From assembly GCA_030668875.1 (NCBI GenBank), contig DAOVER010000025.1, positions 10,895 through 42,894 on the forward strand: DNA of 32,000 nucleotides, written 5' to 3'. Under the pieces are notes generated by a model. It saw nothing but the letters and a program-made list of their open reading frames with translations, made no database searches and was not told the DNA's origin. Position numbers and translations under genes: made by a program. Below, in pieces: positions 6,883 to 27,410 of the stretch (positions within the stretch are counted from its first letter, which is position 1; each line of letters begins with the position of its first letter). The DNA is from Candidatus Heimdallarchaeota archaeon (lineage in GTDB: Archaea; Asgardarchaeota; Heimdallarchaeia; Heimdallarchaeales; Heimdallarchaeaceae).

Positions 6883-6931
6883 TTGTAAGAGCAAATGGTC
6901 ATTCTGAATTATAAACCTATTTTATTTATGA

Positions 6932-6963
6932 ATGTGTTTTTGTCTTTTTGTCTTATTAGCTTG
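6932..6963 (+). repeat. 8-bp-periodic TTGTC motif array, putative left end of the tnpB remnant
   Basis: ATGTGTTT TTGTCTTT TTGTCTTA TTAGCTTG. Positions 6939-6959 match the reverse complement of 27313-27333 at 20/21 nt. Confidence 0.6.
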
Positions 6964-7027
6964 TAAAACTAGTAACATTTTCGAGATAGTACAGGTGTTT
7001 TTATAGTGAACTCTAGGTCAACGAAGG

Positions 7028-7300
7028 ATGGCAAAGGTACTGCGTGCAGAACGTATAGAAGTGACGTATCATCCAGCATTAAGCAGAATCTGTCATCAAG
7101 CAAAAAATCTCTATAATCGAGCAAATTTTCTGATAAAAACTTCTTTGAAACAAACAAACTTCTCTTTTACTACGATCTTGATAGACAATTGAAACAGGAG
7201 GGGTGCTACCGTGTCCTCCCGGCTCATGTTGCTCAACAGACACTCAAACTTCTTTCTAGATGTTGGAAGAGCTATTTTCGAGCTAAACAAGAGTGGAAGA
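7028..7300 (+). pseudogene. tnpB: Frameshifted, 3'-truncated tnpB fragment, same family as 26023-27282
   Basis: MAKVLRAERIEVTYHPALSRICHQAKNLYNRANFLIKTSL, frameshift near 7150, then KLLFYYDLDRQLKQEGCYRVLPAHVAQQTLKLLSRCWKSYFRAKQEWK. Aligns to the first ~90 aa of the intact TnpB; upstream TTTTATA...CTCTAGGT is also shared. Confidence 0.92.
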
Positions 7301-10716: not shown

Positions 10717-11538
10717 ATGTTTGCAAAGAAAGAGGATGAAGTTGTTAAGAAAACGAAAACACCAATCACGCAAAACAGCCTAATTGAAGATTTTAAAAAA
10801 TTGGGTTTGAAAGCAGGTGATGTTGTTATTGTTCATGCCTCTATGAGTAAAATAGGTTGGATTGCTGGAACTTCAGTTGCTGTAGTCAATGCGCTTTTGG
10901 AAGTTCTAACACCTGAAGGAACGCTTGTGATGCCAACAATGACTTCAGATAACACAGACCCAGAAAACTGGAAAAACCCACCTGTTCCCGATGAATGGAA
11001 ACAAATAATTCGGGATAATATGCCAGCCTATCATCCAGATTATTCTACTTCAAGAGGTATGGGTAGAATATCAGAAACATTTCGTAATTACCCAGATGTG
11101 TTACGATCAAATCATCCTCAAAGTTCATTTGCAGCTTGGGGAAAGTATAAGGAAAAGATATGTGGCCGACATGACCTAACACCATGTTTTGGTGAAAATA
11201 CTCCTCTTGAGGAGTTATATAATCTTAAGGCAAAGATTCTTCTACTGGGTATTGAACATTTAAACAACACATCACTCCATTATGCTGAATGCAAAGCCAA
11301 CATAGATGACAAACCCATCCAAAAGCAAGGTGCAGCATTGTTTGACAATGGTAAGAGAGTATGGGTTAGTTTTGAAGATCTTGATTATAATGATGAAGAT
11401 TTTCTCCAAGTAGGTGTAGAGTTTGAAAAAGAAAATCCTATCTTAAAGGGAAAGATTGGTCAAGCAGACTCGAAGTTACTTCCAATCAAAGAACTCATAG
11501 ATTTTGCAATTCCTTGGTTTGAGAAGAATAGGAAATAG
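10717..11538 (+). CDS. AAC(3)/YokD-family N-acetyltransferase
   Basis: GDVVIVHASMSKIGW, GTLVMPT, MGRISETFR, RSNHPQSSFAAWG, NTSLHYAE. Confidence 0.88.
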   Translation: MFAKKEDEVVKKTKTPITQNSLIEDFKKLGLKAGDVVIVHASMSKIGWIAGTSVAVVNALLEVLTPEGTLVMPTMTSDNTDPENWKNPPVPDEWKQIIRDNMPAYHPDYSTSRGMGRISETFRNYPDVLRSNHPQSSFAAWGKYKEKICGRHDLTPCFGENTPLEELYNLKAKILLLGIEHLNNTSLHYAECKANIDDKPIQKQGAALFDNGKRVWVSFEDLDYNDEDFLQVGVEFEKENPILKGKIGQADSKLLPIKELIDFAIPWFEKNRK

Positions 11539-11566
11539 ATTTTTAAATTCTATATTTTACTACTTT

Positions 11567-12751
11567 TTGGTTAGCAAGTTGAAGGAAAAAGTATCTTCAT
11601 TTATAGATGAGAATAGGGAGTTATTATTAGCAGTAAGTAAAGAAATCTTTGACAACCCAGAACTAGGATTTGAGGAGTTCAAAGCATCTAAACTTTTATC
11701 AGAAAAAATTCAGGAAGCAGGCTTTGAGACAAAACTTGGTGTTGCGAATCTTGAAACAGCAATTCACGCCATACATCCAGATATTAGTGATGGTCCAGTT
11801 GTAGCAATTCTTGCCGAATATGATGCCCTACCAGGGCTAGGACATGGGTGTGGTCATAACTTAATAGCTACAGCTGGATTGGGTGCAAGTTTAGCTTTAG
11901 GTTCAATCAAAAAGGATTTGCCAGGTAAATTGGTTTTTATGGGCACTCCAGCGGAGGAATCAGGAGGGGGAAAAATATTCATGATAAATGCTGGATTGTT
12001 TGACGAAGTTGATGCAGCAATAATGTTTCATCCCTCAGCAACTAAGAATTATGTTGGAAGAGGAGGATTAGCTGTTCAAGCAATCAAGATAGAATTTTTT
12101 GGTAAAACTGCTCATGCTTCCTCTGAACCTGAAAAAGGGATTAACGCCTTGGATGCAATTATTCAGACTTTCAATGGTATTAGTGCCTTAAGACAGCACA
12201 TAACCAGCGATGCTAGAATTCATGGAGTTATTATAAATGGAGGAGTTAAACCAAACATTGTTCCTGATTATGCTTCAGCTGAATTTTATGTAAGAGCACA
12301 AGATGATAATTACCTTGAAGAACTTTTAAACAAGGTTGAAAACTGCGCCAAAGGAGCAGCTTTGAGTTCTGGAGCAAGATTAGAATTTAGTGAAGTAGGC
12401 AATGCCTATATGTCTAGAAATGTAAACAAGATTCTAGGGGAAGCCTTCTCAAAGAATATGAATGCAATTGGAGAGGAAACTCATACAGTACCTCATGGAA
12501 AAGGTTTAGGATCAAGTGATATAGGAAATGTTAGTCATGTAGTTCCTACAATTCACCCGTACATAGGAATAAGTAAGATTGAAATCAATGGTCATTCTAC
12601 AGATTTTGCAAAAGCAGCAAATAGTGAATACGGAAACGAACAGATGCTCAAAATAACTAAAGCATTAGCAATGACAGCCATTGATGTGTTTACCACTCCT
12701 AAACTTGTTGAAGAGATGAAAAAGGAATTTGCAATAACAAAAAAAGGATAG
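11567..12751 (+). CDS. M20 family amidohydrolase (PM20D2/ACY1L2-like)
   Basis: PELGFEEFKAS, AEYDALPGLGHGCGHNLI, GTPAEE, NALDA, GSSDIGNVS...PTIHP. Start uncertain (TTG at 11567 or 11579). Confidence 0.9.
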   Translation: MVSKLKEKVSSFIDENRELLLAVSKEIFDNPELGFEEFKASKLLSEKIQEAGFETKLGVANLETAIHAIHPDISDGPVVAILAEYDALPGLGHGCGHNLIATAGLGASLALGSIKKDLPGKLVFMGTPAEESGGGKIFMINAGLFDEVDAAIMFHPSATKNYVGRGGLAVQAIKIEFFGKTAHASSEPEKGINALDAIIQTFNGISALRQHITSDARIHGVIINGGVKPNIVPDYASAEFYVRAQDDNYLEELLNKVENCAKGAALSSGARLEFSEVGNAYMSRNVNKILGEAFSKNMNAIGEETHTVPHGKGLGSSDIGNVSHVVPTIHPYIGISKIEINGHSTDFAKAANSEYGNEQMLKITKALAMTAIDVFTTPKLVEEMKKEFAITKKG

Positions 12752-12876
12752 TTTTTTCTCCAGAATAACAACCTCTTCTCATTTCAATAAGTACTTCAGC
12801 CTCTGGATACTCTAGAAGCTCATCAAAATAAGTTGAGTTTCTCCTTCTATCTAGAAGACTCCTGTATTAACCTAAG
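12749..12876 (-). pseudogene. Decayed 3' fragment of a GNAT gene, homologous to 19253-19771
   Basis: Minus strand reads LRL[1-nt deletion]TGVF ... EYPEAEV ... LEKKL versus LRLDAGPF ... EYPESES ... MEKKL in the intact GNAT. The 12-mer tctggatactct is identical at 12802-12813 and 19311-19322. Confidence 0.75.
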
Positions 12877-12895
12877 AATTAGCCAAATTAATAAC

Positions 12896-15241
12896 TTACT
12901 CTTCTTCAATTGCTTGTGCAAGGTTTTTACCTCCTAAAAATTGAAACTCAGGTATTAAGGAAATTACAACTGTCATAATTGAAAAGGAAATTGTAATTAA
13001 ATAGTCCCAACCAGTGGTACTTGATTCTATTTTGAAAAATATATCAGAAATGAGCGATAACCAGTAACAATTCAAAAATAGTCCTGATATAAATCCTAGA
13101 CATAGAGCAACAAGTGTTAGCATTGCTATTTCCAACCCTAATTGTAGAAGAATCTGAGATTTTGAAAAACCAAAAACCCGTTCTAAAGAAACTTCCCGCG
13201 TTCTTTCAATTGTAATTATAAATGTTGTAGAGAAAATTGCTAAAAATGCAATAATGAAGCCCAAAATCATCATAATTTTAACAATTATTGTTTGAATGTC
13301 AATAATGCTTTCAATTCTATCTTGAAAAATACTTTTCGATAAAGCTAGTCGAATATCCTTATGGGTATTCATTTCGTCCATCAAATCCCCTGATTTGTTA
13401 TTTTGTGAAGACGCTATTATACCATTTACTGGCAAATATCCTAATCTTTCTTCTAAATATGGAAGCTGAATAAACATCGCTATAGGAGATCCGACAGCTC
13501 TACACAATCCCACAATAGAAATATTAACTTGCTCTGTATGAAACCAAAAACTGAAGTTATCACCTGATTTTACATCTAGTTTCTTTGCAATATGAGTTGA
13601 CATTATTACCTCTGCAGCTTTTTCTCCAGAAAAGTCTTGACCTTCTTGAATATCTATTTCTATCAATTGTGAATCACTGACAATCCCTCTTAACTGTACT
13701 ATTAATTCACTACGTATATCAGGTTGAACTATAGCTTCTAAATATGGCTCTGAATGTTCTATCGAATTGAACTGGCTAATTTCATCGTAAATAGCATGAG
13801 TATAATCAAACGTGTTGAAAAGACCTTTCACATCCCACTTCACTTTTGTGTCAAAATACACATTTTGGGTTGTGGATAAGCTTGTTTGAGCAGAGAGAAG
13901 TGAAAAAGACAACATAATAGAACCCATAAAAGCTATAAGGGTTAGCGTAGTTCTAAGTTTATTGCGAGATAAGTTGCGAAAGGCATACTTCAATTGCAAA
14001 GGAAATCTAATTGGTAATGGTTTTTTCTTTGTTTTTGGTTTAAACTCTTTTACTTTACCACGAAGTGCTTCATAGGGTGTCATAGAAACATTTTCCTTGG
14101 CAGCTAAATAAGTAAAAATTAATGAAATAAATAGGGTTATACCTACAACTTCAACTAAAACCCCTATTGAAAAGAAAGATGTTAAATCTAAAATTCCCCA
14201 AAGTGTCGCAAGCATTCCCGACAAAAATTTTAATAAAAACCATGAAGCTACAATCCCAACCCCTATTGCAAATAGAGCAATGACTAATGTTCTTAAGAGA
14301 AACGCTTTCATTATAGTTGAAGAAGAAAATCCAAATGAATAGAGCATGCCCGTCTGTTTTCTCTGTTCGAAAGCATATCTTTTCGTGATTATGAAGACTA
14401 CAAAACCTGCAATAATCATTATTATTATCGCAGATGAATTTAGATATTTGGATGTTAGGTTTAATATATCAGTTAATGAAGCACTTATGCTAATCTCACG
14501 TACTTGCCATATTATAATCAGTGGTAGATGAGCTTCAATGAAAACATCATGTAAATAATCTGAACAGTCATTTATTTCATCTTTTGAAACTTCATCAGAA
14601 AAATATACTAGTACATTATTAAAAAAGGGAAAGGGTATGTTAGCTATACTGCGAAGATCTTTTTCTGAAATATAAATTGCCCCTTCTTGAGTAAAGTCAT
14701 AACTCATAAATTCAATTGATCGAATTATACCAACAATGGTAAATTGTTGAACACCAGTTTCTCCATAAAGAGAGATGGAGTCATCTAAAGATAAATTGAG
14801 ATGATTGGCAAAGGATTCTAAGATGACAGTTTGATTATCAGAAATATCTAGAGTTCCTTCAACTAGTTTTATTTCATTAACATCCATAGTTTTAGAGTCA
14901 TTAACCCCTACGATGTTTACTGGATACCATTCAGTCTCATGAAAAATTTTGTATCCTGAACTAACTCTTGTTGAAATTCTCTCTGGAGCCCATCCAAGGC
15001 AATCAATAATTGAATTATTTATCAATGGAACTATTTCAGTAGTTACATTAGTAAAACGAATGTCTAAATGGGCAAGATGATAATCTTGTGAATTAACATC
15101 TATTGAATAGGTAATTGAAGGTGCTGTAGAAAACATTGCAATTGGAAATGCAACAATTACTAGAATTGTTAGGAATGTGATAAAACTTCTTGATTTATTA
15201 AAATATATTTCGCGTATGACTGCGCGATAAATTTTAGCCAT
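12896..15241 (-). CDS. FtsX/MacB-type ABC transporter permease (two repeats)
   Basis: Two modules of TM helix, large extracytoplasmic domain and three TM helices, with EQRKQTGMLYSFGFS and ERTREVSLERVFGFS motifs. Confidence 0.85.
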   Translation of the reverse strand: MAKIYRAVIREIYFNKSRSFITFLTILVIVAFPIAMFSTAPSITYSIDVNSQDYHLAHLDIRFTNVTTEIVPLINNSIIDCLGWAPERISTRVSSGYKIFHETEWYPVNIVGVNDSKTMDVNEIKLVEGTLDISDNQTVILESFANHLNLSLDDSISLYGETGVQQFTIVGIIRSIEFMSYDFTQEGAIYISEKDLRSIANIPFPFFNNVLVYFSDEVSKDEINDCSDYLHDVFIEAHLPLIIIWQVREISISASLTDILNLTSKYLNSSAIIIMIIAGFVVFIITKRYAFEQRKQTGMLYSFGFSSSTIMKAFLLRTLVIALFAIGVGIVASWFLLKFLSGMLATLWGILDLTSFFSIGVLVEVVGITLFISLIFTYLAAKENVSMTPYEALRGKVKEFKPKTKKKPLPIRFPLQLKYAFRNLSRNKLRTTLTLIAFMGSIMLSFSLLSAQTSLSTTQNVYFDTKVKWDVKGLFNTFDYTHAIYDEISQFNSIEHSEPYLEAIVQPDIRSELIVQLRGIVSDSQLIEIDIQEGQDFSGEKAAEVIMSTHIAKKLDVKSGDNFSFWFHTEQVNISIVGLCRAVGSPIAMFIQLPYLEERLGYLPVNGIIASSQNNKSGDLMDEMNTHKDIRLALSKSIFQDRIESIIDIQTIIVKIMMILGFIIAFLAIFSTTFIITIERTREVSLERVFGFSKSQILLQLGLEIAMLTLVALCLGFISGLFLNCYWLSLISDIFFKIESSTTGWDYLITISFSIMTVVISLIPEFQFLGGKNLAQAIEEE

Positions 15242-15244
15242 TTT

Positions 15245-15973
15245 TTAAGCTCCATCCAAAGAATTTTCAATCAAAATATCAGAAATAATTGTTCCAGAAC
15301 GCAATTCGATTATCCTATCAGCATATTTCTTCAGTTCTGGATCGTGTGTGACAAGAATTACTGTTTTTTGATAACGCTTTGCAATATCTCTTATTAATGA
15401 TACAACACTTTCACCAGTTTCTTGATCCAACTGACCTGTTGGCTCATCTATCAACAAAATTTCTGGGTTTTTTGCTAATGCTCGAGCAATTGCAACTCTT
15501 TGTCTTTCTCCACCTGAAAGCTGTGAAGGAAAATTGTTTGCCCTATCTTCTAAATTAACCATTTTTAGGTAACTTATGGCTTCTTTACGAATTTTTCTAC
15601 GATCCACTCTCATTAATTCCATCGTTAATTCTACATTTTCAACAGCTGTCAATGTTGGTATTAGAGAATAAAATTGAAACACAAATGAAAGTCGAGCCTT
15701 TCGATACTTAGTTAATTTTTTATCGGAATATTCAGAAATATTTTCACCGCAAACATCTATTTCTCCCTTTGTTGGAGAATCAATTCCACCTATTAGGTTT
15801 AGCAAAGTGGTCTTTCCAGAACCACTAGAACCCATTACAAACAACAGTTGACCAGCCGGGATAGTGAAAGATACATTTCTTAAGGCATAAACAGGATTGG
15901 TCTTTAAATTATAGGTTTTTTCTAAGTTAGAGATTAAAATAACAGGTTGAATAGCTAGATGAGTGTTCAACAT
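15245..15973 (-). CDS. ABC transporter ATP-binding protein, LolD/MacB-like
   Basis: GSSGSGKTT, LSGGERQRVAIARAL, LIDEPTGQLD, VTHD. Confidence 0.93.
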   Translation of the reverse strand: MLNTHLAIQPVILISNLEKTYNLKTNPVYALRNVSFTIPAGQLLFVMGSSGSGKTTLLNLIGGIDSPTKGEIDVCGENISEYSDKKLTKYRKARLSFVFQFYSLIPTLTAVENVELTMELMRVDRRKIRKEAISYLKMVNLEDRANNFPSQLSGGERQRVAIARALAKNPEILLIDEPTGQLDQETGESVVSLIRDIAKRYQKTVILVTHDPELKKYADRIIELRSGTIISDILIENSLDGA

Positions 15974-16016
15974 TAATATTTCATTAAGACACTACCAATA
16001 TAAAGGTTTAGTATTC

Positions 16017-16063
16017 AAATAATTTGTTTTTCAAATTATTTTAATTTCACATTATCGGATAAT
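16017..16063. promoter_or_regulatory. Two palindromes in the divergent ABC/marR intergenic region (putative MarR operators)
   Basis: AAATAATTTG-ttttt-CAAATTATTT (16017-16041, perfect 10-bp arms) and ATTATC-g-GATAAT (16051-16063). Confidence 0.55.
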
Positions 16064-16099
16064 CAAAAGAAATAAATAGAGGTAAGAGACAGTATATAC

Positions 16100-16561
16100 A
16101 TGGGTAGAGACTACAATCAAGTTATAGATTTATTTTTCAACTTCCTGTTTAAGATGAAAGTAGAGATATTAAATAAGAGACCCATGGTTCTAGAATTCCT
16201 TAGATTAAATAAACTTGACATTAAAAGAGATCCATTTGGCAAGTATTTGCGAATGATTGATTTTATTGGAGAAAAAAACCAAGTTAATATGAAAGAGTTT
16301 ACAAATCGTTTCAGTTTGGATGCAGGAACAGCTACAGGGATTATTGATAAACTAGTAAAGAAGAAAATTATTGTAAGAGTAACAGATGAATCCGATCGGC
16401 GGAAGGTAGGATTGGAATTAACCAAGTATGGAACAAAAATTTACAATAAACAAAAAGAGATACAGAAGGGAGAAATAAAGAGGATTTTAGATATATTAAC
16501 AGATGAAGATATTGAACATGTGATTAGAATTTTGAAAAAAATAGATGCGATATCAAACTAG
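16100..16561 (+). CDS. MarR-family transcriptional regulator
   Basis: wHTH with TATGIIDKLVKKKIIVRVTDESDRRKVGLELTKYG (DRR wing motif). Confidence 0.9.
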   Translation: MGRDYNQVIDLFFNFLFKMKVEILNKRPMVLEFLRLNKLDIKRDPFGKYLRMIDFIGEKNQVNMKEFTNRFSLDAGTATGIIDKLVKKKIIVRVTDESDRRKVGLELTKYGTKIYNKQKEIQKGEIKRILDILTDEDIEHVIRILKKIDAISN

Positions 16562-16598
16562 TAAAGGATAAAGGAAAAATGAGAGAGGTTAACTCTCT

Positions 16599-17882
16599 TC
16601 ATTCAGGTTTAAAGTGTTTTCGCGAATATAAGAAAAGTCCTAGTGCTAAGAATAATGCCGATAGGACTATTAGTAGGATGAGATCGAATAGATGATTAGA
16701 TAGGGTATTACCGTGAAGGAGAAGTCCTCTAAAAATCCTTATAGCTGGTGCAGCACCAAGTAGATCAAACAAACCTACTGAATTTCCAAGTATATTTGGG
16801 ATAACTGTTGGATTAGGTATGACAAAGAACGCACCAGAGATTAATGCTATGGGTGTTGCAGTAATTGCTGCTAAACCTCTACCTGCTGAAGCATTCCTTA
16901 CTACACCTGCAAAAATGAAACCCATTCCGCTAGTAGCTAGAGACAAGAAAATAGCAGGTAAGAAGGCATAAAGAATTTGTATGGAAAATGGGAAACCAAA
17001 CAACAATGCTGTAGCAAATGTTATAGGAATCTGTATAAACGCAATGACCATTTGACTAGCCAAAATAGAAAATACATACATTGGGGGTGTAACTTTACTG
17101 AGTCTAAGTCGTTTAAGAGTTCCTCTTTCTATATCACTAAGAGCAATATCAGTTGTAGAACCTAGATTGTTTAGTATTGCATAAACAATTAATCCTGGTA
17201 GAACAAAATCAAAGACAGTAAAACCAGAGGTTAATAGACTTCCATATACATCAATAATTACACCTTCAACAGGAGATTCCCCAAAATTAAAGAAATATTG
17301 AGTTATCTTATCGATAATGGTCCCAGTTACGGTGAAATCTTGCAGAGTACTATCGCCTTCAACTAGTAAGACTGTTTTGAAATCTGAACTGGGATAACCT
17401 GACCAGTTTCCTGTCGCAGCAGTAAGTATAGGATCATCTCCAAATTTACTCCTAAAAGCTGCAAGGACACCTGTACTAAAGTTTTCAGGTAGCGTTACCA
17501 GAGCCATGATGTTTCTGCTTTCAAGCAGTTCTTGAGCATCTTCATGTTCTGATTGGTTGAAGACATGAACATCAAATATTGTAACATTACTTTCTGGAAA
17601 CAAAACTGTATCAAGGACTCTGATATACTCCTCGGAATAGAAGGTTTGATTCACAATTGAAGTATTCCAAAAAGCTATAACACTTTCATCAATTCCGGTG
17701 TCATAACTTATGATGCCTATAGTTTTTGATGAAGTAATAGGATCACTCCATTGAAATGCAAAACCGAAAACTCCTACAAAGCATAATGGAAAAATAATCG
17801 TAAAGAAAAATGCTGTCTTGTTTCGTGTTATAGAAAGTATATTTGTTTTCAGTAGGGAGTAAAATAGTTTAATTTTTGACAT
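16599..17882 (-). CDS. ABC-2 type transporter permease
   Basis: N-terminal TM helix, extracytoplasmic domain, DFVLPGLI, ERGTLKRLRLS and several C-terminal TM helices. Confidence 0.88.
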   Translation of the reverse strand: MSKIKLFYSLLKTNILSITRNKTAFFFTIIFPLCFVGVFGFAFQWSDPITSSKTIGIISYDTGIDESVIAFWNTSIVNQTFYSEEYIRVLDTVLFPESNVTIFDVHVFNQSEHEDAQELLESRNIMALVTLPENFSTGVLAAFRSKFGDDPILTAATGNWSGYPSSDFKTVLLVEGDSTLQDFTVTGTIIDKITQYFFNFGESPVEGVIIDVYGSLLTSGFTVFDFVLPGLIVYAILNNLGSTTDIALSDIERGTLKRLRLSKVTPPMYVFSILASQMVIAFIQIPITFATALLFGFPFSIQILYAFLPAIFLSLATSGMGFIFAGVVRNASAGRGLAAITATPIALISGAFFVIPNPTVIPNILGNSVGLFDLLGAAPAIRIFRGLLLHGNTLSNHLFDLILLIVLSALFLALGLFLYSRKHFKPE

Positions 17883-17898
17883 CTAATCACCTTTCTTC

Positions 17899-18900
17899 CT
17901 ATTCTCTTAGGGCTTTCCCTGTAAGACCAATGAACACATCTTCTAATGTACTTCCACGAAGTTGTAAGCTTTTAATATAATCAGTAACATCCAATTTCAC
18001 AGCAATCTCAATTATATCAGGTATAAGAGATGCACCATTCTTTGTGAAAATCTTAATTTTATTTTCATGGAATGTAATCTTCGAAAACTCTTTTCGTAGA
18101 TCTACAATAAATGAATCATTGAGTTTGGCATCTAAACTTTCGTCCATAATAAGTTCTATTAATTCTTCAGCACCATATGTGGTTTTCAATTCATCAGGAG
18201 TTCCTTGAGCTATGATTTTTCCATAATCTATAATCAAAATGCGGTCACAGAGTCGGTCAGCAACTTCCATCAAATGGGTTGTTAGTATTATAGAAATTCC
18301 TTCCTTTTTAGACAATCTTTCAATATTTTCCCAAAGAATATGACGGCTTTGTGGATCCATGCCTGCACTTGGTTCATCTAGAAACAATATTTTTGGAGAA
18401 TGTAACATCCCCAAAACTAAATTTAGTCTTCTTTTCTGACCACCACTTAATTTTTCTGCTCTTCTTCTCTTAAGTTCCGTCAGTTGAAAAAGGTCAAAGA
18501 GTTCATTTATTCTAGCTTTCTTATTTTGTATCTGATAACAATCAGCAAAAAGCTCAGCATTCTCCTGAACAGTTAAAAAGTCATAAAAAACCAATTCTTG
18601 AGGTGTGTAACCAATTAATTCACGGATTGTTTTGTAATCATTAATATCCTTGCCGTAAATTGAAAAATCCCCTTTAGTTTTTTGAATTATTCCAAGTAAA
18701 ATGGAAATGGTAGTAGTCTTTCCAGCTCCATTAGGACCCAGAAAACCTAGAACTTCTCCATCAAATAACTCAAAATTCACACCACGAACTGCATGTACTT
18801 TTCCATCATAGATTTTCTCTAAGTTTTTAGTTTCCACTACTATCTCTTTGAGTGATTTATTTACTGCCTGATTCTTTGCTTCAACAGCTTCTTCAACCAT
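17899..18900 (-). CDS. ABC transporter ATP-binding protein (DrrA-like)
   Basis: GPNGAGKTT, LSGGQKRRL, FLDEPSAGMD, LTTH. True start is likely ATG 18900, with TATATA 24 nt upstream. Confidence 0.93.
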   Translation of the reverse strand: MVEEAVEAKNQAVNKSLKEIVVETKNLEKIYDGKVHAVRGVNFELFDGEVLGFLGPNGAGKTTTISILLGIIQKTKGDFSIYGKDINDYKTIRELIGYTPQELVFYDFLTVQENAELFADCYQIQNKKARINELFDLFQLTELKRRRAEKLSGGQKRRLNLVLGMLHSPKILFLDEPSAGMDPQSRHILWENIERLSKKEGISIILTTHLMEVADRLCDRILIIDYGKIIAQGTPDELKTTYGAEELIELIMDESLDAKLNDSFIVDLRKEFSKITFHENKIKIFTKNGASLIPDIIEIAVKLDVTDYIKSLQLRGSTLEDVFIGLTGKALRE

Positions 18901-18956
18901 AGTTTTCAATTCTTTATACGCTCTTATATACCTAGCTCTTTGATTTCCAATACACG

Positions 18957-19246
18957 AATGCAATAAGAGATGATACTCATGTTGTAGAACATGAAAGGGA
19001 TTTAGGTTCTAAAATATGGGAATCGTGAATCATTTTGTTCCAACAATTCATCTTTGTATGGGGTTAAGCAAAGTTGAAATCAATGGATACTCGACAGATT
19101 TTGCTGAAGTAATAAGCAGTGAATGTGGAAACAAACAGATGTTGAAGGTAACAAAAGCTTTGGCTATGACCGCAATGGATATTTTTGCTGAACCTGAACT
19201 AGTTTAAGAGATGAAAGAAGAATTTGAACAGATAAAGAAGGGATAG
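18957..19246 (+). pseudogene. 3' remnant of an M20 amidohydrolase, diverged copy of 12461-12751
   Basis: NAIRDDTHVVEHERDLGS, frameshift, then VPTIHLCMGLSKVEINGYSTDFA...QMLKVTKALAMTAMDIFAEPELV*EMKEEFEQIKKG*. Aligns with the C-terminus of the intact M20; has an in-frame TAA at 19205-19207. Confidence 0.9.
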
Positions 19247-19252
19247 TCTTCT

Positions 19253-19771
19253 CTAAAGTTTTTTTTCCATATATGTCCAAGTCACACCATCCAGCTTTGG
19301 AGATTCAGATTCTGGATACTCTTCAATTTCAACAAAACCTTCTGATTGATATAATTTTTGAGCAGATTTCATGAAAGGTCCAGCGTCTAATCTTAAAGAA
19401 GAATAACCCAGTCTCTTACCTTTCTCTATTAATCTGTTAAGAAGGGATTTTCCAAGTCCTTTTCCTTGATACTCGGGTTTAACATACATCCGCTTTATTT
19501 CACCAATTTCGGGGCTTATTCTTCTTAGGGCACCCATTCCAACAATGTTACTTTCAACTCGAACAAGATAGAACACTCCTCCTGGAGGTTGGAAAAGCTC
19601 CAGCTCATCAAGGATTCTTGCAGCATAACTATGAGCAGAACCAATGTGTGCTTCAAGATCAATATTCAACTGCTTTTTACACTGATTCACAATCCATTGT
19701 AAATATTCAGTATTCATTTCAAGAAGTATGGATAAGTGTTTTACAATATTCAAAGTAACAAAATCAACCAT
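19253..19771 (-). CDS. GNAT family N-acetyltransferase
   Basis: VGMGALRR...GEIKRMYVKPEYQGKGLGKSLL (acetyl-CoA motif A), LRLDAG...AQKLYQSEGF. Confidence 0.9.
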   Translation of the reverse strand: MVDFVTLNIVKHLSILLEMNTEYLQWIVNQCKKQLNIDLEAHIGSAHSYAARILDELELFQPPGGVFYLVRVESNIVGMGALRRISPEIGEIKRMYVKPEYQGKGLGKSLLNRLIEKGKRLGYSSLRLDAGPFMKSAQKLYQSEGFVEIEEYPESESPKLDGVTWTYMEKKL

Positions 19772-20173
19772 TTTTAAACCTTCACTTTTCCTTTGCGAAT
19801 TTTGATAGTGATAGACTATAAGTAAGTATAGTTTTGTAATATTCTTCGATGCATACCTTATTCTTCTAGTATCTTAAATAATTTTTTTGCATTACTTCTT
19901 TTAACAATTTGTTGAAACAGATTTTGCAAGTGATTTTAATAAGCACAAGAATTTTTCACATACGCTCTAGTATATATTCATAACTTAAACGCTTTAAAAA
20001 CTAAATTTGATTACAAAGTGCTTAGTTTTAGTCTTTATCGATTAATAGTTTCTCCTTGGAAGAAAGTTCAGTACCATCTAGATTATTGTTAGCAGAAATT
20101 GATAAAACATCAATGTCGACCATACTTTCCACACACTTATATATATGATGGAAAACATAGTGCACAGATACTA

Positions 20174-20632
20174 ATGAGGTCTAAGAAAGTATTGAAATTA
20201 CTCTTTATTTTAATGATGGGTGTTTTGCTTGTACCCAATCTTGGTGTAGACGCAAGTACCTATGGTATAAATATTGAACATGTGGAATATTGTGATCTTG
20301 ATGATGACGGGAAAGAGGATGATGTGTATGCTGAAATTCTTGTCACCATGTTTGAAGGCACAAAGAATTTGATTTTTAAAACAACTTTGAAATTTGATGG
20401 AGAGATTCTTCATTCAATATATAGAGATAATCACGTAAGAACTGAAGATGAAATATTGTACAAATTTTATTTCATCAATGTCGCATTCGAGAGTGGGTGG
20501 TACGTTCTATACGCTTGGTTCTATATATACACTGAAGTGCAAAGCGGATTTTACTTTGATATAACAATTTTCGATCCACCAGGAGGTGACCCAGACTATC
20601 CAATAGGAGGAGGGGTAGATCCAGGTCCATAA
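20174..20632 (+). CDS. Secreted hypothetical protein with a DxDDDG Ca-binding-like loop and Pro/Gly-rich tail
   Basis: Signal peptide MRSKKVLKLLFILMMGVLLVPNLGVDA, DLDDDGKEDD, beta-rich core, C-terminal FDPPGGDPDYPIGGGVDPGP. TATA run at 20137-20146. Confidence 0.7.
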   Translation: MRSKKVLKLLFILMMGVLLVPNLGVDASTYGINIEHVEYCDLDDDGKEDDVYAEILVTMFEGTKNLIFKTTLKFDGEILHSIYRDNHVRTEDEILYKFYFINVAFESGWYVLYAWFYIYTEVQSGFYFDITIFDPPGGDPDYPIGGGVDPGP

Positions 20633-22456: not shown

Positions 22457-22532
22457 TTGCAAACGTTTGCAATATATGCAAATGTTTATAAGGGGGACAA
22501 GGAGAGTAATATATAGTTTGCAAAAATTGCAA
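22457..22532. promoter_or_regulatory. Array of five WTGCAA sites around a TATA box (putative operator)
   Basis: TTGCAA at 22457, 22467, 22518 and 22527, ATGCAA at 22476, TTTATA at 22485-22490. The first pair forms the perfect 16-bp palindrome TTGCAAACGTTTGCAA. Confidence 0.6.
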
Positions 22533-22546
22533 AGGCGCGATGAAAA

Positions 22547-23599
22547 ATGCCAAAAGATGAAACAGATATTATCATAAGTTTAAGAAACTTAACAAAAAGG
22601 TTTGGTGATTTTACTGCGGTAAACGATATTACAATGGATGTAAGAAGAGGGGAAATTATCGGTTTACTAGGCCCAAATGGTGCAGGTAAAACAACAACAA
22701 TGAAAATGATATCTAGGCTTCTAAAACCCACAGTTGGAGAAGTCTGGATAAGAGAAAATGGTGAACTAGAACTATTAACAAATAGAAACAAAGATAGTTT
22801 ATTAGATAAAATAGGATTTCTAATTGAAAACCCTACTTTTTATGACCATATGACTCCAAAGCAGATATTGACCTATTTTGCTACATTGAAAGGTTATACA
22901 AGAAAAAAGATTCCAGCTAGAATTGAAGAAGTTCTTGCAATGGTTGGTTTGTCAGCATGGATCAACAAGAAGGTTGGTACTTTTTCCAAAGGGATGAAAC
23001 AGAAATTAGGTATAGTTTCAGCACTTATTCACGACCCTGATTTTCTGGTTTTAGATGAACCTCAAACAGGATTAGATCCTAAAGCGCGCAGAGAGATTCG
23101 AGCTCTGTTACTAAAATTGAAACATTCTGGAAAAACTATTTTCCTTTCAAGTCATCTGCTTTATGAAGTGAGTGAAATCTCAGATCGAATAGCTATTATC
23201 AATTTAGGTCAGATAGTTGCATATAACACGATGGAAAATCTTGAAGCTGAATCTAAAGACAGTCGGTTAGTTATTCAATTGGAAACTATTCCATCGGATA
23301 TTGAACAGAAAAAAGCACAACTAGAAGCAATTGTTAGACCCTATGCTGGAGTCAATAATGGCTCAAATATTGTTGAATTTAGGTATGAAACAAGAACCTT
23401 CGAAATTAGATTCGATGGAAGTATAAAGAATCAAAAGACCATACTAAAGGAATTAACCAAGAGTGATTTTGATGTAATTAATTTTTCAGTTCCACGAACA
23501 AACTCACTTGAAGATTTGTACATTAATCTAGTGAGTGAGGGGGCTATTGGAAAATTAGAAGATCAGATGCAGGAAGAAGTTCCTGTCGCAATGGAGTGA
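22547..23599 (+). CDS. ABC transporter ATP-binding protein
   Basis: GPNGAGKTT, FSKGMKQKLG, LDEPQTGLD, LSSH. Confidence 0.93.
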   Translation: MPKDETDIIISLRNLTKRFGDFTAVNDITMDVRRGEIIGLLGPNGAGKTTTMKMISRLLKPTVGEVWIRENGELELLTNRNKDSLLDKIGFLIENPTFYDHMTPKQILTYFATLKGYTRKKIPARIEEVLAMVGLSAWINKKVGTFSKGMKQKLGIVSALIHDPDFLVLDEPQTGLDPKARREIRALLLKLKHSGKTIFLSSHLLYEVSEISDRIAIINLGQIVAYNTMENLEAESKDSRLVIQLETIPSDIEQKKAQLEAIVRPYAGVNNGSNIVEFRYETRTFEIRFDGSIKNQKTILKELTKSDFDVINFSVPRTNSLEDLYINLVSEGAIGKLEDQMQEEVPVAME

Positions 23600-23604
23600 T
23601 AAAA

Positions 23605-24498
23605 ATGACAGTAACACAAGATGGAAATTTACAATCTAGATTTGAGCAACACGTAGTAGGACATCGTAAGTCCTTAGTTCAAGTTGGAGCAACCGTTAAG
23701 TTTGAATTTCAAAGAAATTTGATGAATATACTTATTTCAGTAGGAATCGCAGCTTTATTCTATGTAATGAATTTAATCATTCAAATAGTAAAAGAAGGCA
23801 GAGGAGTAGAAGCTCCAACTGAAGCAGTAGAGTATTTAGCTTCTTACATGGGGATGACCTTTGGTTTCTTTATCCTTATAATCGCAGCTCAATATGGAGC
23901 TAACATAATTGCGTATGATTATGATAAGCAAACAGGGAATCTTCTATTCCCAAAGATAACTAAAGGCAGGTTATTTGTTGGACGAATGATTGCACGATAT
24001 TTATTATCAGTGCTTGCAGTCATAGTATATTATATAGCACTTGGGATTTCAGTAGCAATCAAATATGGTGAATTACCAACATCAATTTGGACTTCTCTAG
24101 GATGGGCAGCGTTCTATATGCTTGCAGTTCTTTCTTTGGTAGTATTCTTTAGTAGTTTCATGAAGAAGACATCTACAGTTATCGTGTTCAGCATACTAAT
24201 GGTACTGATTGTTTTCCAATTGACAACTACTATTCTACATATTACTGGATCAGAAATTGAACCATTGTTCATATTAACCTATTATTCGAACATAATTTCT
24301 GAAAGCTTAACAGGAATACCTGTAGATCGATTTGTAGAAACTGCACTTAGTGGCCCCGGAATGGGTCCAGGATCAGTTGATGGACCAACTGGTATGGCTT
24401 GGATAACTCCTAGCATTTCTGGAGCAGCAATAGGTTTAGCAATCTATTCAATAAGTCTATTAACAGCTGCTTACGTCATGTTCAGAAGAAGGCAATAA
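23605..24498 (+). CDS. ABC-2 type transporter permease
   Basis: Six or more TM helices, DYDKQTGNLLFPKIT motif; SD-like GGAGTGA just upstream of ATG 23605. Confidence 0.8.
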   Translation: MTVTQDGNLQSRFEQHVVGHRKSLVQVGATVKFEFQRNLMNILISVGIAALFYVMNLIIQIVKEGRGVEAPTEAVEYLASYMGMTFGFFILIIAAQYGANIIAYDYDKQTGNLLFPKITKGRLFVGRMIARYLLSVLAVIVYYIALGISVAIKYGELPTSIWTSLGWAAFYMLAVLSLVVFFSSFMKKTSTVIVFSILMVLIVFQLTTTILHITGSEIEPLFILTYYSNIISESLTGIPVDRFVETALSGPGMGPGSVDGPTGMAWITPSISGAAIGLAIYSISLLTAAYVMFRRRQ

Positions 24499-24514
24499 AG
24501 AAAATTGAAACTAA

Positions 24515-24547
24515 GAAGAGAGCTTTGCAGCTCGCCTTCTTTTTTTT
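24515..24547 (+). terminator. Hairpin followed by a T-tract
   Basis: GAAG-A-GAGC-tttgca-GCTC-GC-CTTC followed by T8, just downstream of the permease stop. Confidence 0.45.
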
Positions 24548-24592
24548 ATTAAACTAGAAAGAAATAAATAGCAAGGAACGCTGTTGATTAAC

Positions 24593-25525
24593 ATGATTGA
24601 AGCTAAATCCACAAAAATTTCTGAAACGAAAACTGATTTTAAAATTAGTTGGCAGTTTCTTAAAGCAAATTATAAATCATTTCTGGCAACAGAACTCTTT
24701 GCGTTTCTTGCATTTATCTTAGTTATTTCGATAATGATGGGAATAATTGTATTGATTTTTGTTCTTTCTCCAGGATTAGAACCTATAGATCTTGTTTTTG
24801 ACAGGGCAAAAGATTTAGACATAACTTTTAGAGTTTGGCTTATAGTTCCGATTTTGGCCTATTTAACAATGGTTGGTTTCCTATACTGTCAATTTGGTTT
24901 AGCTTATGATATTTTCACTTCCGGAGATATGTTTACAGAATTCAAGAAAGCATTTAATTATTTCAAGGAACATTGGTGGAAATACATTCTCTTAACTTTT
25001 GTAACAGGGTTTAGTTTTTTCATACCAGATCACATAATGCAACGAAGGTTAGAAACGAGTCCTTGGGCAAGTTTAGGTTCTCTTATAATAATCCTTGAAG
25101 TTTTAAGATATCTTGTAATCTTCATTATTTTAGTAGTTTTCAGTAATACTCTACCTAGTGTTACTGCGCAAGGTAATCTGAAAAATAGTTTTAAAGAATC
25201 TTTTAGAATCGTAAAGAAAGAATGGAAACGTTTATTGAAAACATGGGGGATCTATTTTTTGATATTTATTGCTCCCTCGTTAATTATATCTGGAGTTTCA
25301 TATCTAACTTTTCCTGTTTTAGAAGGAACAGTTTGGATTGAAGTAATCAGAGGTATTGCAATCATTTTTCAAGTATATAAATTATTTATAGGATTTCCAA
25401 TGCTGGCATTAATTGCAACTCGAATATACAATAGTGTTGAATTTGAGAGATATAAACCTCTTATAAAATATGAAAATCCATCAAAAGTAGATGCTGAAGA
25501 TAAGATTAGTGTTGGTTCAATTTGA
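24593..25525 (+). CDS. Multi-pass membrane protein of unknown function
   Basis: About six hydrophobic helices with an internal repeat pattern (KAFNYFKEHWWKY / KESFRIVKKEWKR). Confidence 0.75.
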   Translation: MIEAKSTKISETKTDFKISWQFLKANYKSFLATELFAFLAFILVISIMMGIIVLIFVLSPGLEPIDLVFDRAKDLDITFRVWLIVPILAYLTMVGFLYCQFGLAYDIFTSGDMFTEFKKAFNYFKEHWWKYILLTFVTGFSFFIPDHIMQRRLETSPWASLGSLIIILEVLRYLVIFIILVVFSNTLPSVTAQGNLKNSFKESFRIVKKEWKRLLKTWGIYFLIFIAPSLIISGVSYLTFPVLEGTVWIEVIRGIAIIFQVYKLFIGFPMLALIATRIYNSVEFERYKPLIKYENPSKVDAEDKISVGSI

Positions 25526-25538
25526 AGTGGTGAATAAA

Positions 25539-25862
25539 ATGTCACAGAAGGATAAACGAAAAGAAGAAAAACTTCAACCAAGAGAGGAAATTACTCTCAC
25601 AGATCCTTCAGCTGTGGCTATAGTTTTCCACGAGAAAAAAGGACAAATTCTCAAATTATTGATTAAGAAAGAAATGACTATAATTGATCTTAAACATGCT
25701 ACAGGTATGAATCCAGGGACAGTAAAACGTCATCTTGACGACCTTTTACAGCATGATTTAATTCTCATTTCTAAAGAGCAGTTGAGCGAGTATAGTATTA
25801 TGATGAAATTTTATCGCGCAGTTGCAAAGAAATTTTTATTCAAAATTGAATGGACTGCTTGA
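25539..25862 (+). CDS. ArsR-like winged-helix regulator
   Basis: KGQILKLLIKKEMTIIDLKHATGMNPGTVKRHLDDLLQHDLI...KFYRAVAK; GGTGA SD before ATG 25539. Confidence 0.8.
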   Translation: MSQKDKRKEEKLQPREEITLTDPSAVAIVFHEKKGQILKLLIKKEMTIIDLKHATGMNPGTVKRHLDDLLQHDLILISKEQLSEYSIMMKFYRAVAKKFLFKIEWTA

Positions 25863-25920
25863 TGAATATATCACTTAACAGTCTACGATAGACTTAATGT
25901 ACAATACATTTATAATAAAA

Positions 25921-27333
25921 TTTTGTCATATTGTCATATAAACTACCATTATATCAGTTTAAATGGACAGTCTTGAGTAAATATTACGGGAGTTTTTATA
26001 AGAATCTCTAGGTAAAGAAGAGATGACTAAAGTTCCTAGGGTGGAATGTATAGAAGTTAACTATCATCCTGCTTTGAGCAAGATTTGCCATCAAGTAAAA
26101 AATCTCTATAATCGAGCGAATTTTCTGATAAAAACATCCTTGAACAAACAGAACAAACTACTCTTCTACAATGATCTCAACAAGCTACTCAACCATGAAG
26201 AATGTTACCGCGTTCTCCCTGCTCACACTGCCCAACATACGCTCAAGCTTATTTGTAGAAACTGGAAGGGTTACTTCCGAGCAATAAAGGAGTGGAAAGT
26301 CAACCCTGGAGATTTCTTTGCTATGCCCCGTCCTCCTAACTACAAAAAGAAGGATGGAGAAGTGGTAGCTATCTTCACTAACCAACAAGCAAGGATCGTC
26401 AATGGGTGGCTGGTTCTGCCAAAGAAGGTGGGATACACATACAAAACGCGGTTGACTTCTCACACGGATTTAAGAGAGGTGAGAATCATTCCAAGAAGAC
26501 CTGGGTATACACTTGAGTTAGTCTATCAGAAAACCTTACCTAAACTCCGTAAAAAGTTTATACGAAAAGGAGGAGTCGATTTAGGGATGATCAACCTTGC
26601 TACCTTTGTGGATAACCTCGGAGGACGACCGATTGTTATCAAAGATGTAGGGAAAGGAATAAAGTCTATAACCCAATATTATCTGAAAAAACAGAAACAA
26701 TTACAGATACAATACGCTCAACAGCAAAGACAAAAACTACAAGTAAAGAACCGATTGACCTATGGTCATACCTACTACAAACTCCGAGAAAAGTGGAGGA
26801 GGAAACTGAAAGACGCTATCCACAAGCTCACCTGTTATTTGGTTGACTTGTGGGTGGAACGAGGTCTCCATGAGGTCATCATCGGCTACAATGAGAAGTG
26901 GAAACAAGGGGTGCAATTCTGGAAGAAGATCACCCAGATGTTCGTCACCATTCCCTTTCTACGTATCATCAACATCTTGAAGTATAAAGGGGCAGAGAGG
27001 GGGATAAAGGTAGATCTGATTCCCGAAAAATACACTTCCAAGTGTAGTTTCCTTGACAATGAATTCCCAAAAGCTAGGAAAAACTACGCTGGTCGTCGAA
27101 TTACAAGAGGGTTATTTAGCTCCGCTCAAGGACATCCCATTAACGCAGATGTCAATGCTGCATACAACATTTTACTCAAAAGCGATCCGAAAGCCTTGCC
27201 TAAACGCAGGGTGAACGGGGTAGGAGGATACGTGATGTATCCACTCAGAGTGAGTATAGAGTGTCTTCGCTCTATATCATGACCTCTAAGCACAACATGT
27301 ACCTAGCTTTGTCTAATAAGACAAGAAGACAAA
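25921..27333 (+). mobile_element. Non-autonomous tnpB-only element, ends approximate
   Basis: tnpB without tnpA, visibly more G/C-rich than its flanks. TTGTCATA x2 on the left (25923-25938) and GACAA-N3-GACAA on the right (27320-27332). Confidence 0.6.
26023..27282 (+). CDS. tnpB: TnpB RNA-guided endonuclease, rearranged RuvC-II type
   Basis: RuvC-I GVDLG (D186), VIIGYN with Gly at the usual Glu position (G288), PEKYTSKCS (E335), RuvC-III NADVNAAYNI (D376). Zinc ribbon reduced to one Cys. Confidence 0.92.
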   Translation: MTKVPRVECIEVNYHPALSKICHQVKNLYNRANFLIKTSLNKQNKLLFYNDLNKLLNHEECYRVLPAHTAQHTLKLICRNWKGYFRAIKEWKVNPGDFFAMPRPPNYKKKDGEVVAIFTNQQARIVNGWLVLPKKVGYTYKTRLTSHTDLREVRIIPRRPGYTLELVYQKTLPKLRKKFIRKGGVDLGMINLATFVDNLGGRPIVIKDVGKGIKSITQYYLKKQKQLQIQYAQQQRQKLQVKNRLTYGHTYYKLREKWRRKLKDAIHKLTCYLVDLWVERGLHEVIIGYNEKWKQGVQFWKKITQMFVTIPFLRIINILKYKGAERGIKVDLIPEKYTSKCSFLDNEFPKARKNYAGRRITRGLFSSAQGHPINADVNAAYNILLKSDPKALPKRRVNGVGGYVMYPLRVSIECLRSIS

Positions 27334-27335
27334 TA
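27200..27335 (+). ncRNA. Putative omegaRNA/reRNA scaffold of the 26023 TnpB, boundaries approximate
   Basis: Consecutive hairpins across the ORF end and 3' flank: GGATAC/GTATCC (27226-27242), TATAGAG/CTCTATA (27255-27276), TTGTCT-aata-AGACAA (27309-27324). This is the usual location for TnpB guide RNAs. Confidence 0.5.
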
Positions 27336-27410
27336 AGCATCATTAATTGTTGTTATATTTCTTCTTCCATTGCTTCGAAATCTATTTATTAGCAGTTTGT
27401 TATATCCCTA

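Follow-up and report, generated by a model that had tools for sequence, protein, structure and literature searches.

Gene content of the locus

The stretch analysed here, referred to as the window, comprises 32,000 nucleotides (nt) from a Candidatus Heimdallarchaeota archaeon (assembly GCA_030668875.1, contig DAOVER010000025.1, positions 10,895 to 42,894) and forms part of contig C94 of a metagenome-assembled genome (MAG, labelled G000) of 3.2 Mb that is 92% complete. Within it, a cassette of ABC exporter genes and a MarR-family regulator lies between an M20-family amidohydrolase gene and a GNAT acetyltransferase gene, and the facing 3' ends of these two genes are found on both sides of the cassette, so that the overall geometry is full M20, GNAT tail, cargo, M20 tail and full GNAT. 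On the left the order is an AAC(3)-like acetyltransferase gene, the M20 gene, a spacer of 144 nt and the FtsX permease gene. On the right the gene of a DrrA-like ATPase is followed by a spacer of 0.35 kb, the GNAT gene, an uncharacterised gene of 177 amino acids (aa), a 414-aa gene, a response regulator and a second ABC cluster.

The insert measures 6.2 kb (12896-18955), which is below 20 kb, and all five of its genes are ABC or MarR by Pfam (Table 1). This agrees with an earlier note on this DNA, made from the letters alone, which had listed an FtsX permease, an ATPase, a MarR regulator, an ABC-2 permease and a further ATPase. With an FtsX permease and a MacB periplasmic core domain beside an ABC ATPase (PF02687, PF12704, PF00005), the left pair is a predicted MacB-type ABC exporter. 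For the DrrA-like ATPase the top NCBIfam match was TIGR01188 drrA, at 273.7 bits and below the cut-off of 312.45 bits. In a search of the genome collection, homologues of the FtsX protein were only 43-68% identical and occurred in different contexts; those in other Asgard MAGs were 52-68% identical. Orthologues of the M20 gene in relatives are 81-94% identical at the aa level.

Table 1 Features of the cassette and its borders, in window coordinates
Feature	Position	Strand	Basis
M20-family amidohydrolase gene, intact, 394 aa as called	11567..12751	+	Pfam Peptidase_M20, M20_dimer; NCBIfam TIGR01891
Decayed GNAT 3' tail, ~30-42 codons with stops; occupies the entire M20-FtsX spacer	12752..12895	-	Shuffle tests
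MacB/FtsX-type ABC permease, 781 aa	12896..15241	-	Pfam FtsX, MacB_PCD
ABC ATPase partnering the FtsX permease	15245..15973	-	Pfam ABC_tran; NCBIfam LolD/MacB-like, under equivalog cut-offs
MarR-family regulator, divergent from the MacB-type operon	16100..16561	+	Pfam MarR
ABC-2 type permease, 427 aa	16599..17882	-	Pfam ABC2_membrane_3, ABC2_membrane
DrrA-like ABC ATPase, 333 aa per public gene calls	17899..18900	-	Pfam ABC_tran
Upstream stretch of the cassette itself with TATA-like TTATATA; right edge of the cassette	18901..18955		Comparison with contig L126
M20 3' remnant, codons 320-415, pseudogene	18956..19254	+	Repeat search, blastn, tblastn
GNAT acetyltransferase, intact, 172 aa, diverged allele here	19253..19771	-	Pfam Acetyltransf_1
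Tail of lost gene Z (486-aa M20-type peptidase), 75 nt	19772..19846	-	blastn, tblastn

The duplicated gene tails

On comparing the window with itself, it was found that the last 96 codons of the M20 gene are present in two copies (12460-12751 and 18956-19254). The repeat search returned the pairs 12519-12759/19014-19254 (73% identity) and 12460-12513/18956-19009 (72%), and blastn aligned the tails over 300 nt with 72% identity at an E-value of 6.5e-43. When searched by tblastn, M20 residues 320-415 were placed at 18957-19243 in two frames (E-value 4e-27) and the remnant is therefore frameshifted; it has lost 1 nt near 18993 and contains TAA stops in frame.

The GNAT tail on the left is weak at the DNA level (34 nt, 79% identity, 12795-12828 against 19304-19337; p 0.002-0.007 against shuffles), and tblastn of the GNAT tail gave no match in the left spacer. 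The minus-strand reading of this spacer, which runs ...STYFDELLEYPEAEVLIEMRRGCYSGEKTI, reached a z-score of 9.4 against the GNAT C-termini of two relatives (G010 and G009; G-numbered labels denote related genomes from a set of 24 genomes of the genus) and of 4.5 against the GNAT of the window itself, and 0 of 1000 dinucleotide shuffles matched either protein score. The match is collinear with the right-hand copy and begins straight after the M20 stop. Both copies of the M20/GNAT junction reported in the earlier note are thus real, including a GNAT remnant that aligns significantly. The duplicated junction is ~0.45 kb in length, with 292 nt of M20 tail and ~90-125 nt of GNAT tail, and both parts are single-copy in G016 and G002.

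The borders of the cassette are sharp on either side. The GNAT tail reaches the FtsX stop, and the M20 remnant begins 5 nt past position 18950, where the match to contig L126 ends; this contig carries the ATPase/ABC-2 pair in a different context, matches the window up to that position and diverges beyond it. Both remnants are truncations at the cassette borders and not decayed whole genes, so that the earlier description of the locus as one of reciprocal gene decay is not tenable, each remnant being cut exactly at a cassette edge. As regards a possible att core, the longest exact runs between the copies are short and not distinctive, and the copies are 72% identical and old. An assembly artefact was also considered and is ruled out by independent Logan assemblies and by a second carrier MAG (see below): among the Logan contigs used for the cross-check, which came from one marine-sediment study and from the cold-seep runs of another, the right junction is present in 5 assemblies of the marine-sediment study, and one contig of 15.8 kb covers the whole structure.

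Empty sites and other cargo in related genomes

In two relatives (G016, contig C10, and G002, contig C352) and in a contig from the European Nucleotide Archive (L133), the M20 gene faces the GNAT gene across a gap of ~11 nt, gene Z comes next and the neighbours are collinear with those of the window. A plain M20/GNAT junction was found in G012 and G023 too. Gene Z adjoins GNAT on its upstream side in G010, G016, G002 and L133, and the window has lost it except for the last ~75 nt, which are matched by G016 3549-3619 in blastn and to which tblastn assigned Z residues 470-486 at 71%.

Other genes occupy the same junction in further members of the genus, namely a 288-aa beta-helix protein in G010 and, in G007 and G009, a DrrA-like ABC cluster with an ArsR gene that is orthologous to window 22516-25856. 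The searches suggested in the earlier note, for empty junctions and for different cargo at the site, were therefore both productive. Two full M20-GNAT pairs, which the note had named as an arrangement that would favour plain duplication if found around the cassette, were seen in 0 of the 24 genomes of the genus and in none of the extra contigs examined.

The G009 genome holds one more arrangement at this site. On its contig L013 (G009:C22), a direct repeat of 203 nt with 95% identity (13536-13738 and 15059-15261) encloses a YbjQ gene and a DUF2085-like gene. The repeat consists of the last 160 nt of the M20 gene of G009 and 43 nt downstream, and each copy resembles G009 sequence. For the DUF2085-like gene, no homologue in the genus exceeds 35% identity. 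The arrangement records another event of like kind at the same M20 tail, and a younger one. The M20/GNAT insertion in the window is a derived state at a site that has been reused, and the junction acts as a reusable landing site across the genus.

Some side observations on these relatives may be recorded. The ABC cluster at window 22547-25862 comprises a DrrA-like ATPase, two membrane proteins and an ArsR-type regulator, and its position varies among relatives: it lies in the M20-GNAT interval in G007 and G009, beside GNAT in G021 and after gene Z in L133. The GNAT gene of G009 (L013 9633-10148) has two internal stops and is a pseudogene. In G015 the M20 gene is divided between the ends of contigs C154 and C15, which overlap by ~17 codons within the M20 tail (residues 355-371), and GNAT lies 23 kb into the second contig; the break could mean a tail repeat or a large insert.

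A second genome with the same insertion

The same insertion is carried by a second MAG, GCA_022096935.1, over its contigs L129 and L127. The former has the order AAC(3), M20 (94% aa identity to the window), 4 nt and FtsX, and the latter the 414-aa gene, the 177-aa gene, GNAT, the M20 remnant and the ATPase (95% aa identity). The remnants of L127 and of the window begin at the same M20 codon. Within the first 15 nt the two have the reading ATAAGAGATGA, at a place where all working genes have ATAGGAGAGGAA or a near variant, and they have two derived changes in common. Given the same start codon and these common derived changes, a single insertion event accounts for both genomes; the insertion is old and was inherited from the common ancestor of the source MAG and GCA_022096935.1.

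The ~145-nt GNAT tail is cleanly absent from L129 and from a cold-seep contig of ~90% identity, in which position 12743 is joined to 12889. Since the spacer in the window is recognisably GNAT, we read this absence as a later deletion in the lineage of GCA_022096935.1 and the cold-seep relative.

Divergence between the two copies

The ratio of nonsynonymous to synonymous substitution rates (dN/dS) came to 0.18 when the window remnant was compared with the working tail and to 0.20-0.27 in comparisons with relatives; pairs of working genes gave 0.05-0.07. At sites that are fixed in five working genes the remnant has 26 private changes, amounting to 13/13/12.5% over the codon positions, and the orphan M20 tail has a component of ~13% neutral decay. 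The earlier note took the kind of changes in the remnant to mean that it had evolved under selection before dying. The low dN/dS values bear out the signature of selection; its source is read differently here, as the swap of an allele.

The evidence for such a swap comes from the second carrier. Measured in bins of 100 nt, identity between the window and L127 is 91-98% up to and including the ATPase, 51-72% over 18916-20115 and 84-100% from there on. The high right flank spans the 177-aa and 414-aa genes, and the low block covers most of the remnant, the GNAT gene and its upstream spacer. The GNAT proteins of the window and L127 are only 61% identical, and those of L127 and G010 83.7%, as species relations predict; the window GNAT is closest to that of G016 (69% aa). 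The block 18916-20115 in the window is a different allele and was acquired through homologous recombination; one of the two crossovers fell a little way into the remnant, the second close to where the 177-aa gene begins.

Eight states are derived in the working tails of the two carriers; the L127 remnant, which is taken to be unswapped, has 5 of them and the window remnant 2. States that the window and L129 have in common and that four relatives lack are concentrated at 12556-12722, with a change point at 12631. The GNAT tail on the left belongs to the resident type, that of G010 and L127, and differs from the present GNAT of the window. From the states of the L127 remnant, the allele block, the GNAT identities and the type of the left tail, the copies are therefore read as alike when they were made: at birth the two were probably alike, and their divergence would be secondary. 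The 72% identity of today is best read as neutral decay together with a later allele swap. The proposal in the earlier note of an incoming molecule whose junction had already diverged is not supported, in view of the L127 remnant, the block of low identity and the resident-type left tail.

An interim reading, with an imported working tail and a displaced resident remnant, had been based on a change point at 12328 against G021, the tail tree and the approximately unbiased (AU) tests described below, and was dropped after the second carrier showed the swap of the right block. Elsewhere in the window, within the AAC(3)-like gene, positions 10923-11122 are 99-100% identical to G021 over 200 nt, against ~89% around them, which looks like a recent recombination tract between species.

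Search for mobility genes

No integrase was detected by Pfam in or near the cassette, in line with one half of the statement in the earlier note that neither integrase nor transposase lies nearby; the other half needs correction, as a TnpB gene (IS605 OrfB, 26023-27282, 419 aa) is located 6.8 kb to the right of the cassette. This element was rejected as the mover: it is multi-copy, is without TnpA and lies at that distance, outside both repeats. Across the MAG there were zero matches to the tyrosine recombinase family PF00589, and no Xer-type enzyme either, whereas all 14 of 14 control genomes were positive. Five serine recombinases with open frames of 110-261 aa were found, all of them on other contigs of the MAG.

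Tail duplications elsewhere in the genome

When the whole MAG was compared with itself, at least 11 loci came to light at which a copy of the 3' end of a gene is located 0.6-8 kb downstream of it, directly oriented and beyond cargo; ~5 loci have other geometry. Besides the C94 locus described here there are ten, with copies of 130-600 nt that are 78-92% identical: C3 (copies at 36033/29324), C15 (12265/12989), C20 (9179/5658), C29 (17088/19829), C37 (17289/9088), C47 (19461/13900/12208, two stacked copies), C57 (5350/6257), C75 (37756/33985), C77 (1376/6365) and C92 (3779/5815). Since the scar recurs so often in a MAG in which no tyrosine recombinase is detectable, host recombination may be among the main routes by which these archaea gain genes. 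It appears doubtful that the dozen islands were made by a dedicated system of these Asgard archaea for capturing genes at resident 3' tails, as opposed to chance recombination; such a system could take the form of junction-carrying circles that move by host recombination, or of an unrecognised enzyme.

Origin of the insertion

We favour an insertion made by recombination without an integrase, with a target duplication of ~0.45 kb whose copies were alike and with a later swap of one of them, and assign this reading a rough probability of 0.55. The 6.2-kb block, with a MacB-type exporter under MarR control and a DrrA/ABC-2 exporter, entered the tail-to-tail M20/GNAT junction in the common ancestor of both carriers, and the agent would have been the cell's own recombination and not an integrase. 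In the product the junction (M20 codons 320-415 and the last 30-40 GNAT codons) flanks the cargo on both sides, and both host genes have therefore remained whole. The comparisons show the duplication, its derived state, the lack of an integrase, the common ancestry of the insertion and the allele swap, whereas the route of recombination is inferred. Two elements of the earlier proposal are retained in this reading, namely a geometry of the single-crossover type that preserves both host genes, and a route free of recombinases, with which the lack of an integrase in the cassette and of PF00589 in the MAG and the empty sites in relatives are in agreement.

The favoured route would consist of one homologous exchange inside the junction and one illegitimate joint that links the end of the cargo to M20 codon 320. 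Of the partners in the exchange, one version of the locus would already have carried the cargo beside the junction and the other would have lacked it. The joint may have formed first, giving a circularised fragment that then entered by a Campbell-type crossover, or it may have formed during integration, as in homology-facilitated illegitimate recombination; the two options give the same product, and the sequence cannot tell them apart. A donor of the expected type would carry the cassette beside M20 and have no right-hand remnant. Afterwards the orphan tails would have decayed neutrally, the sister lineage would have deleted the ~145-nt GNAT tail, and in the source genome most of the M20 remnant, the GNAT gene and the upstream spacer were later replaced by the diverged allele, a step that needs homologous recombination with one crossover within the remnant.

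Metagenome contigs of the Joint Genome Institute (JGI) yielded no donor: the M20 tail query found no relatives there, and the M20 alignment gave only matches of at most 65%. In the contigs of four runs over 11000-20500 neither a circle joint (19254 to 12460) nor an empty-site joint was seen, although such contigs drop rare forms; the only bridging joint in them was that of the cold-seep relative, 12743 to 12889.

Several observations weigh against the favoured reading. The tail tree places the window remnant in a group with G021 and G016 and the working tail as outgroup to the clade. A phylogeny had been suggested in the earlier note: with the window remnant alone the AU test rejects a sister relation to the working tail (p 0.02), a rejection that we attribute to the allele swap, and with both remnants in the tree an in-situ clade is disfavoured (difference in log-likelihood -12.4) and not rejected (p 0.09). 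The best tree does not group the two remnants with each other, though their grouping is not rejected (p 0.17). The case for copies that were alike at birth is built on 8 informative sites and 30 residues, with thin margins. Coming from a MAG that is 92% complete, the negative result for PF00589 does not prove that the family is absent. Possible donor-type versions are hinted at by the cold-seep contigs and L126, which are fragments only. Finally, because both novel joints are old, the favoured route is inseparable from a duplication by staggered break and fill-in.

Other explanations for the locus have to be weighed against these points. A non-replicating circle bearing the cargo and an already diverged (~72%) junction may have entered by a single crossover, in which case the remnant would be the tail either of the circle or of the displaced resident. 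It would fit the geometry, the dN/dS of the remnant, its grouping with G021 and G016 and the rejection at p 0.02, as well as the window-private sites (4.9% in the working tail vs 2.4%) and the change point at 12328. We nevertheless regard it as unlikely. A homologous crossover at 72% identity over 0.4 kb is itself improbable, the remnant of the second carrier has 5 of the 8 derived states of the working tails, and a block of 51-72% identity between flanks of 91-100% is a simpler source of divergence. Moreover, the left GNAT tail is of resident type, the AU value rises to 0.09 once both remnants are included, and the contigs of the four runs, which cannot show rare forms, held no circle joint. 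Copies that were alike at birth would be expected as well if the target had been duplicated in one step, by staggered-break repair or template switching as foreign DNA was captured, in which case both joints would be illegitimate and homologous exchange would play no part. The younger case in G009 is in keeping with this, with two G009-like copies around a DUF2085-like gene that lacks close homologues in the genus. Duplications of 0.2-0.6 kb have no established mechanism of this sort, however, and the preference for downstream 3' tails (11 loci vs ~5 of other geometry) would be left unexplained, which makes a one-step origin rather improbable.

The restored target gene with an orphan tail at the far end also recalls target-restoring islands, and one may ask whether the locus is a decayed site-specific island that entered at the M20 tail with a replacement tail and whose integrase was later lost or acted in trans. 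Reuse of the site by different cargo and the recurrence of the layout across the genome are consistent with such an island. Against it, no tyrosine recombinase was found in the MAG and its serine recombinases lie elsewhere, the repeats of 130-600 nt have no common sequence, and a crossover inside M20 does not predict that the GNAT tail is duplicated too. The cargo, furthermore, consists of ordinary exporter operons that are also found as separate modules elsewhere, and this origin seems very unlikely to us. Least probable of all is a tandem duplication of the M20-GNAT pair followed by reciprocal loss and a separate arrival of the cassette. The gene order is the same and an in-situ clade is not rejected with both remnants (p 0.09), but three events would be needed where one suffices, no genome or contig examined holds two full pairs, and independent decay would not leave both remnants cut precisely at the borders of the cassette (18950/18956 for the right one, the FtsX stop for the left one).

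Relation to known systems

Insertion with long target duplication reportedly goes back to work of Nobusato et al. 2000. In bacteria, integrase-free insertions of this kind have repeats of up to ~420 bp; they were described for restriction-modification units, and no archaeal case survived the screen (Furuta et al. 2010, PMC2853133). The locus described here resembles them in a cargo below 20 kb, in the lack of a transposase or integrase, in direct repeats above 30 bp that are single-copy in the empty genome, with repeats from tens of bp to ~420 bp often lying over a gene 3' end, and in that the pattern emerges from the comparison of related genomes. It differs in that the cargo is not a restriction-modification unit but two ABC exporters with a MarR regulator, in an Asgard archaeon instead of bacteria, and in that the duplicated target is a convergent junction with two gene tails, whose copies are old (72%).

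Homology-facilitated illegitimate recombination, said to have been reported by de Vries and Wackernagel 2002 and by Prudhomme et al. 2002, offers a second parallel. Displacement arrays are known from Rhs/CdiA tips and from the effector-immunity arrays of the type VI secretion system (T6SS) of Vibrio, and the orphan arrays have been ascribed to this process (Kirchberger et al. 2017, PMC5361080). In both settings a homologous anchor in a conserved gene is combined with an illegitimate joint and no integrase, the incoming DNA leaves the anchor gene complete, and the former 3' part ends up downstream as an orphan. In contrast to toxin tips and immunity genes under conflict-driven selection, the anchor here is a housekeeping-type peptidase and the orphan tail is useless, and the donor-type polymorphism expected in the working tail is seen weakly.

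Campbell-type insertion-duplication of a non-replicating circle is a laboratory method in many bacteria and archaea. Its product is identical, with the homologous fragment on both sides and both flanking genes intact if their 3' ends are spanned, whereas the natural source of a junction-carrying circle is hypothetical in the present case. Target-restoring islands and prophages, of which e14 at icd is an example, depend on an integrase together with a short att core. As in those elements, the incoming DNA restores the tail of the gene and the displaced tail is found at the far end; unlike them, the cassette has no integrase gene at either end.

Among Asgard archaea, an integrated element with an att site of 11 nt has been reported in a study of mobile elements (PMC11529989). 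No description of a tail-duplication scar was found in that study or, at the level of titles and abstracts, in other Asgard literature. The M20/GNAT scar is an old, fixed mark of recombination-based gene gain at a reusable site, of a kind known from bacteria. With its empty sites, second carrier, younger case and later remodelling, the locus documents the gain of operons by an Asgard archaeon without the enzyme of a mobile element, and it is of interest chiefly as a documented example of what seems to be a common pattern in these archaea. It also calls for caution, as a pseudogene that looks selected can stem from a later allele swap and not from the original event.

Other observations on the cargo and repeats

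Parts of the cargo are found in other surroundings. The tail-to-tail MarR/ABC-2 junction (window 16438-16846) has a counterpart in G009, an orphan fragment of 415 nt (L013 2487-2901) that is 87% identical, in which both genes are truncated and which adjoins an Arf-family GTPase gene. The same junction is joined to unrelated sequence on further sediment and cold-seep contigs. Nothing informative came from Pfam searches of the gene upstream of the cassette in L126 or of the genes beside the orphan junction in G009.

The TnpB gene to the right of the cassette belongs to a TnpB-only element of IS605 type that spans 25900-27344, and many copies of it, 65-91% identical, occur across related genomes. 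A stretch of ~370 nt at 6924-7300 is likewise repeated and is probably the end of the TnpB element or a miniature derivative of it.

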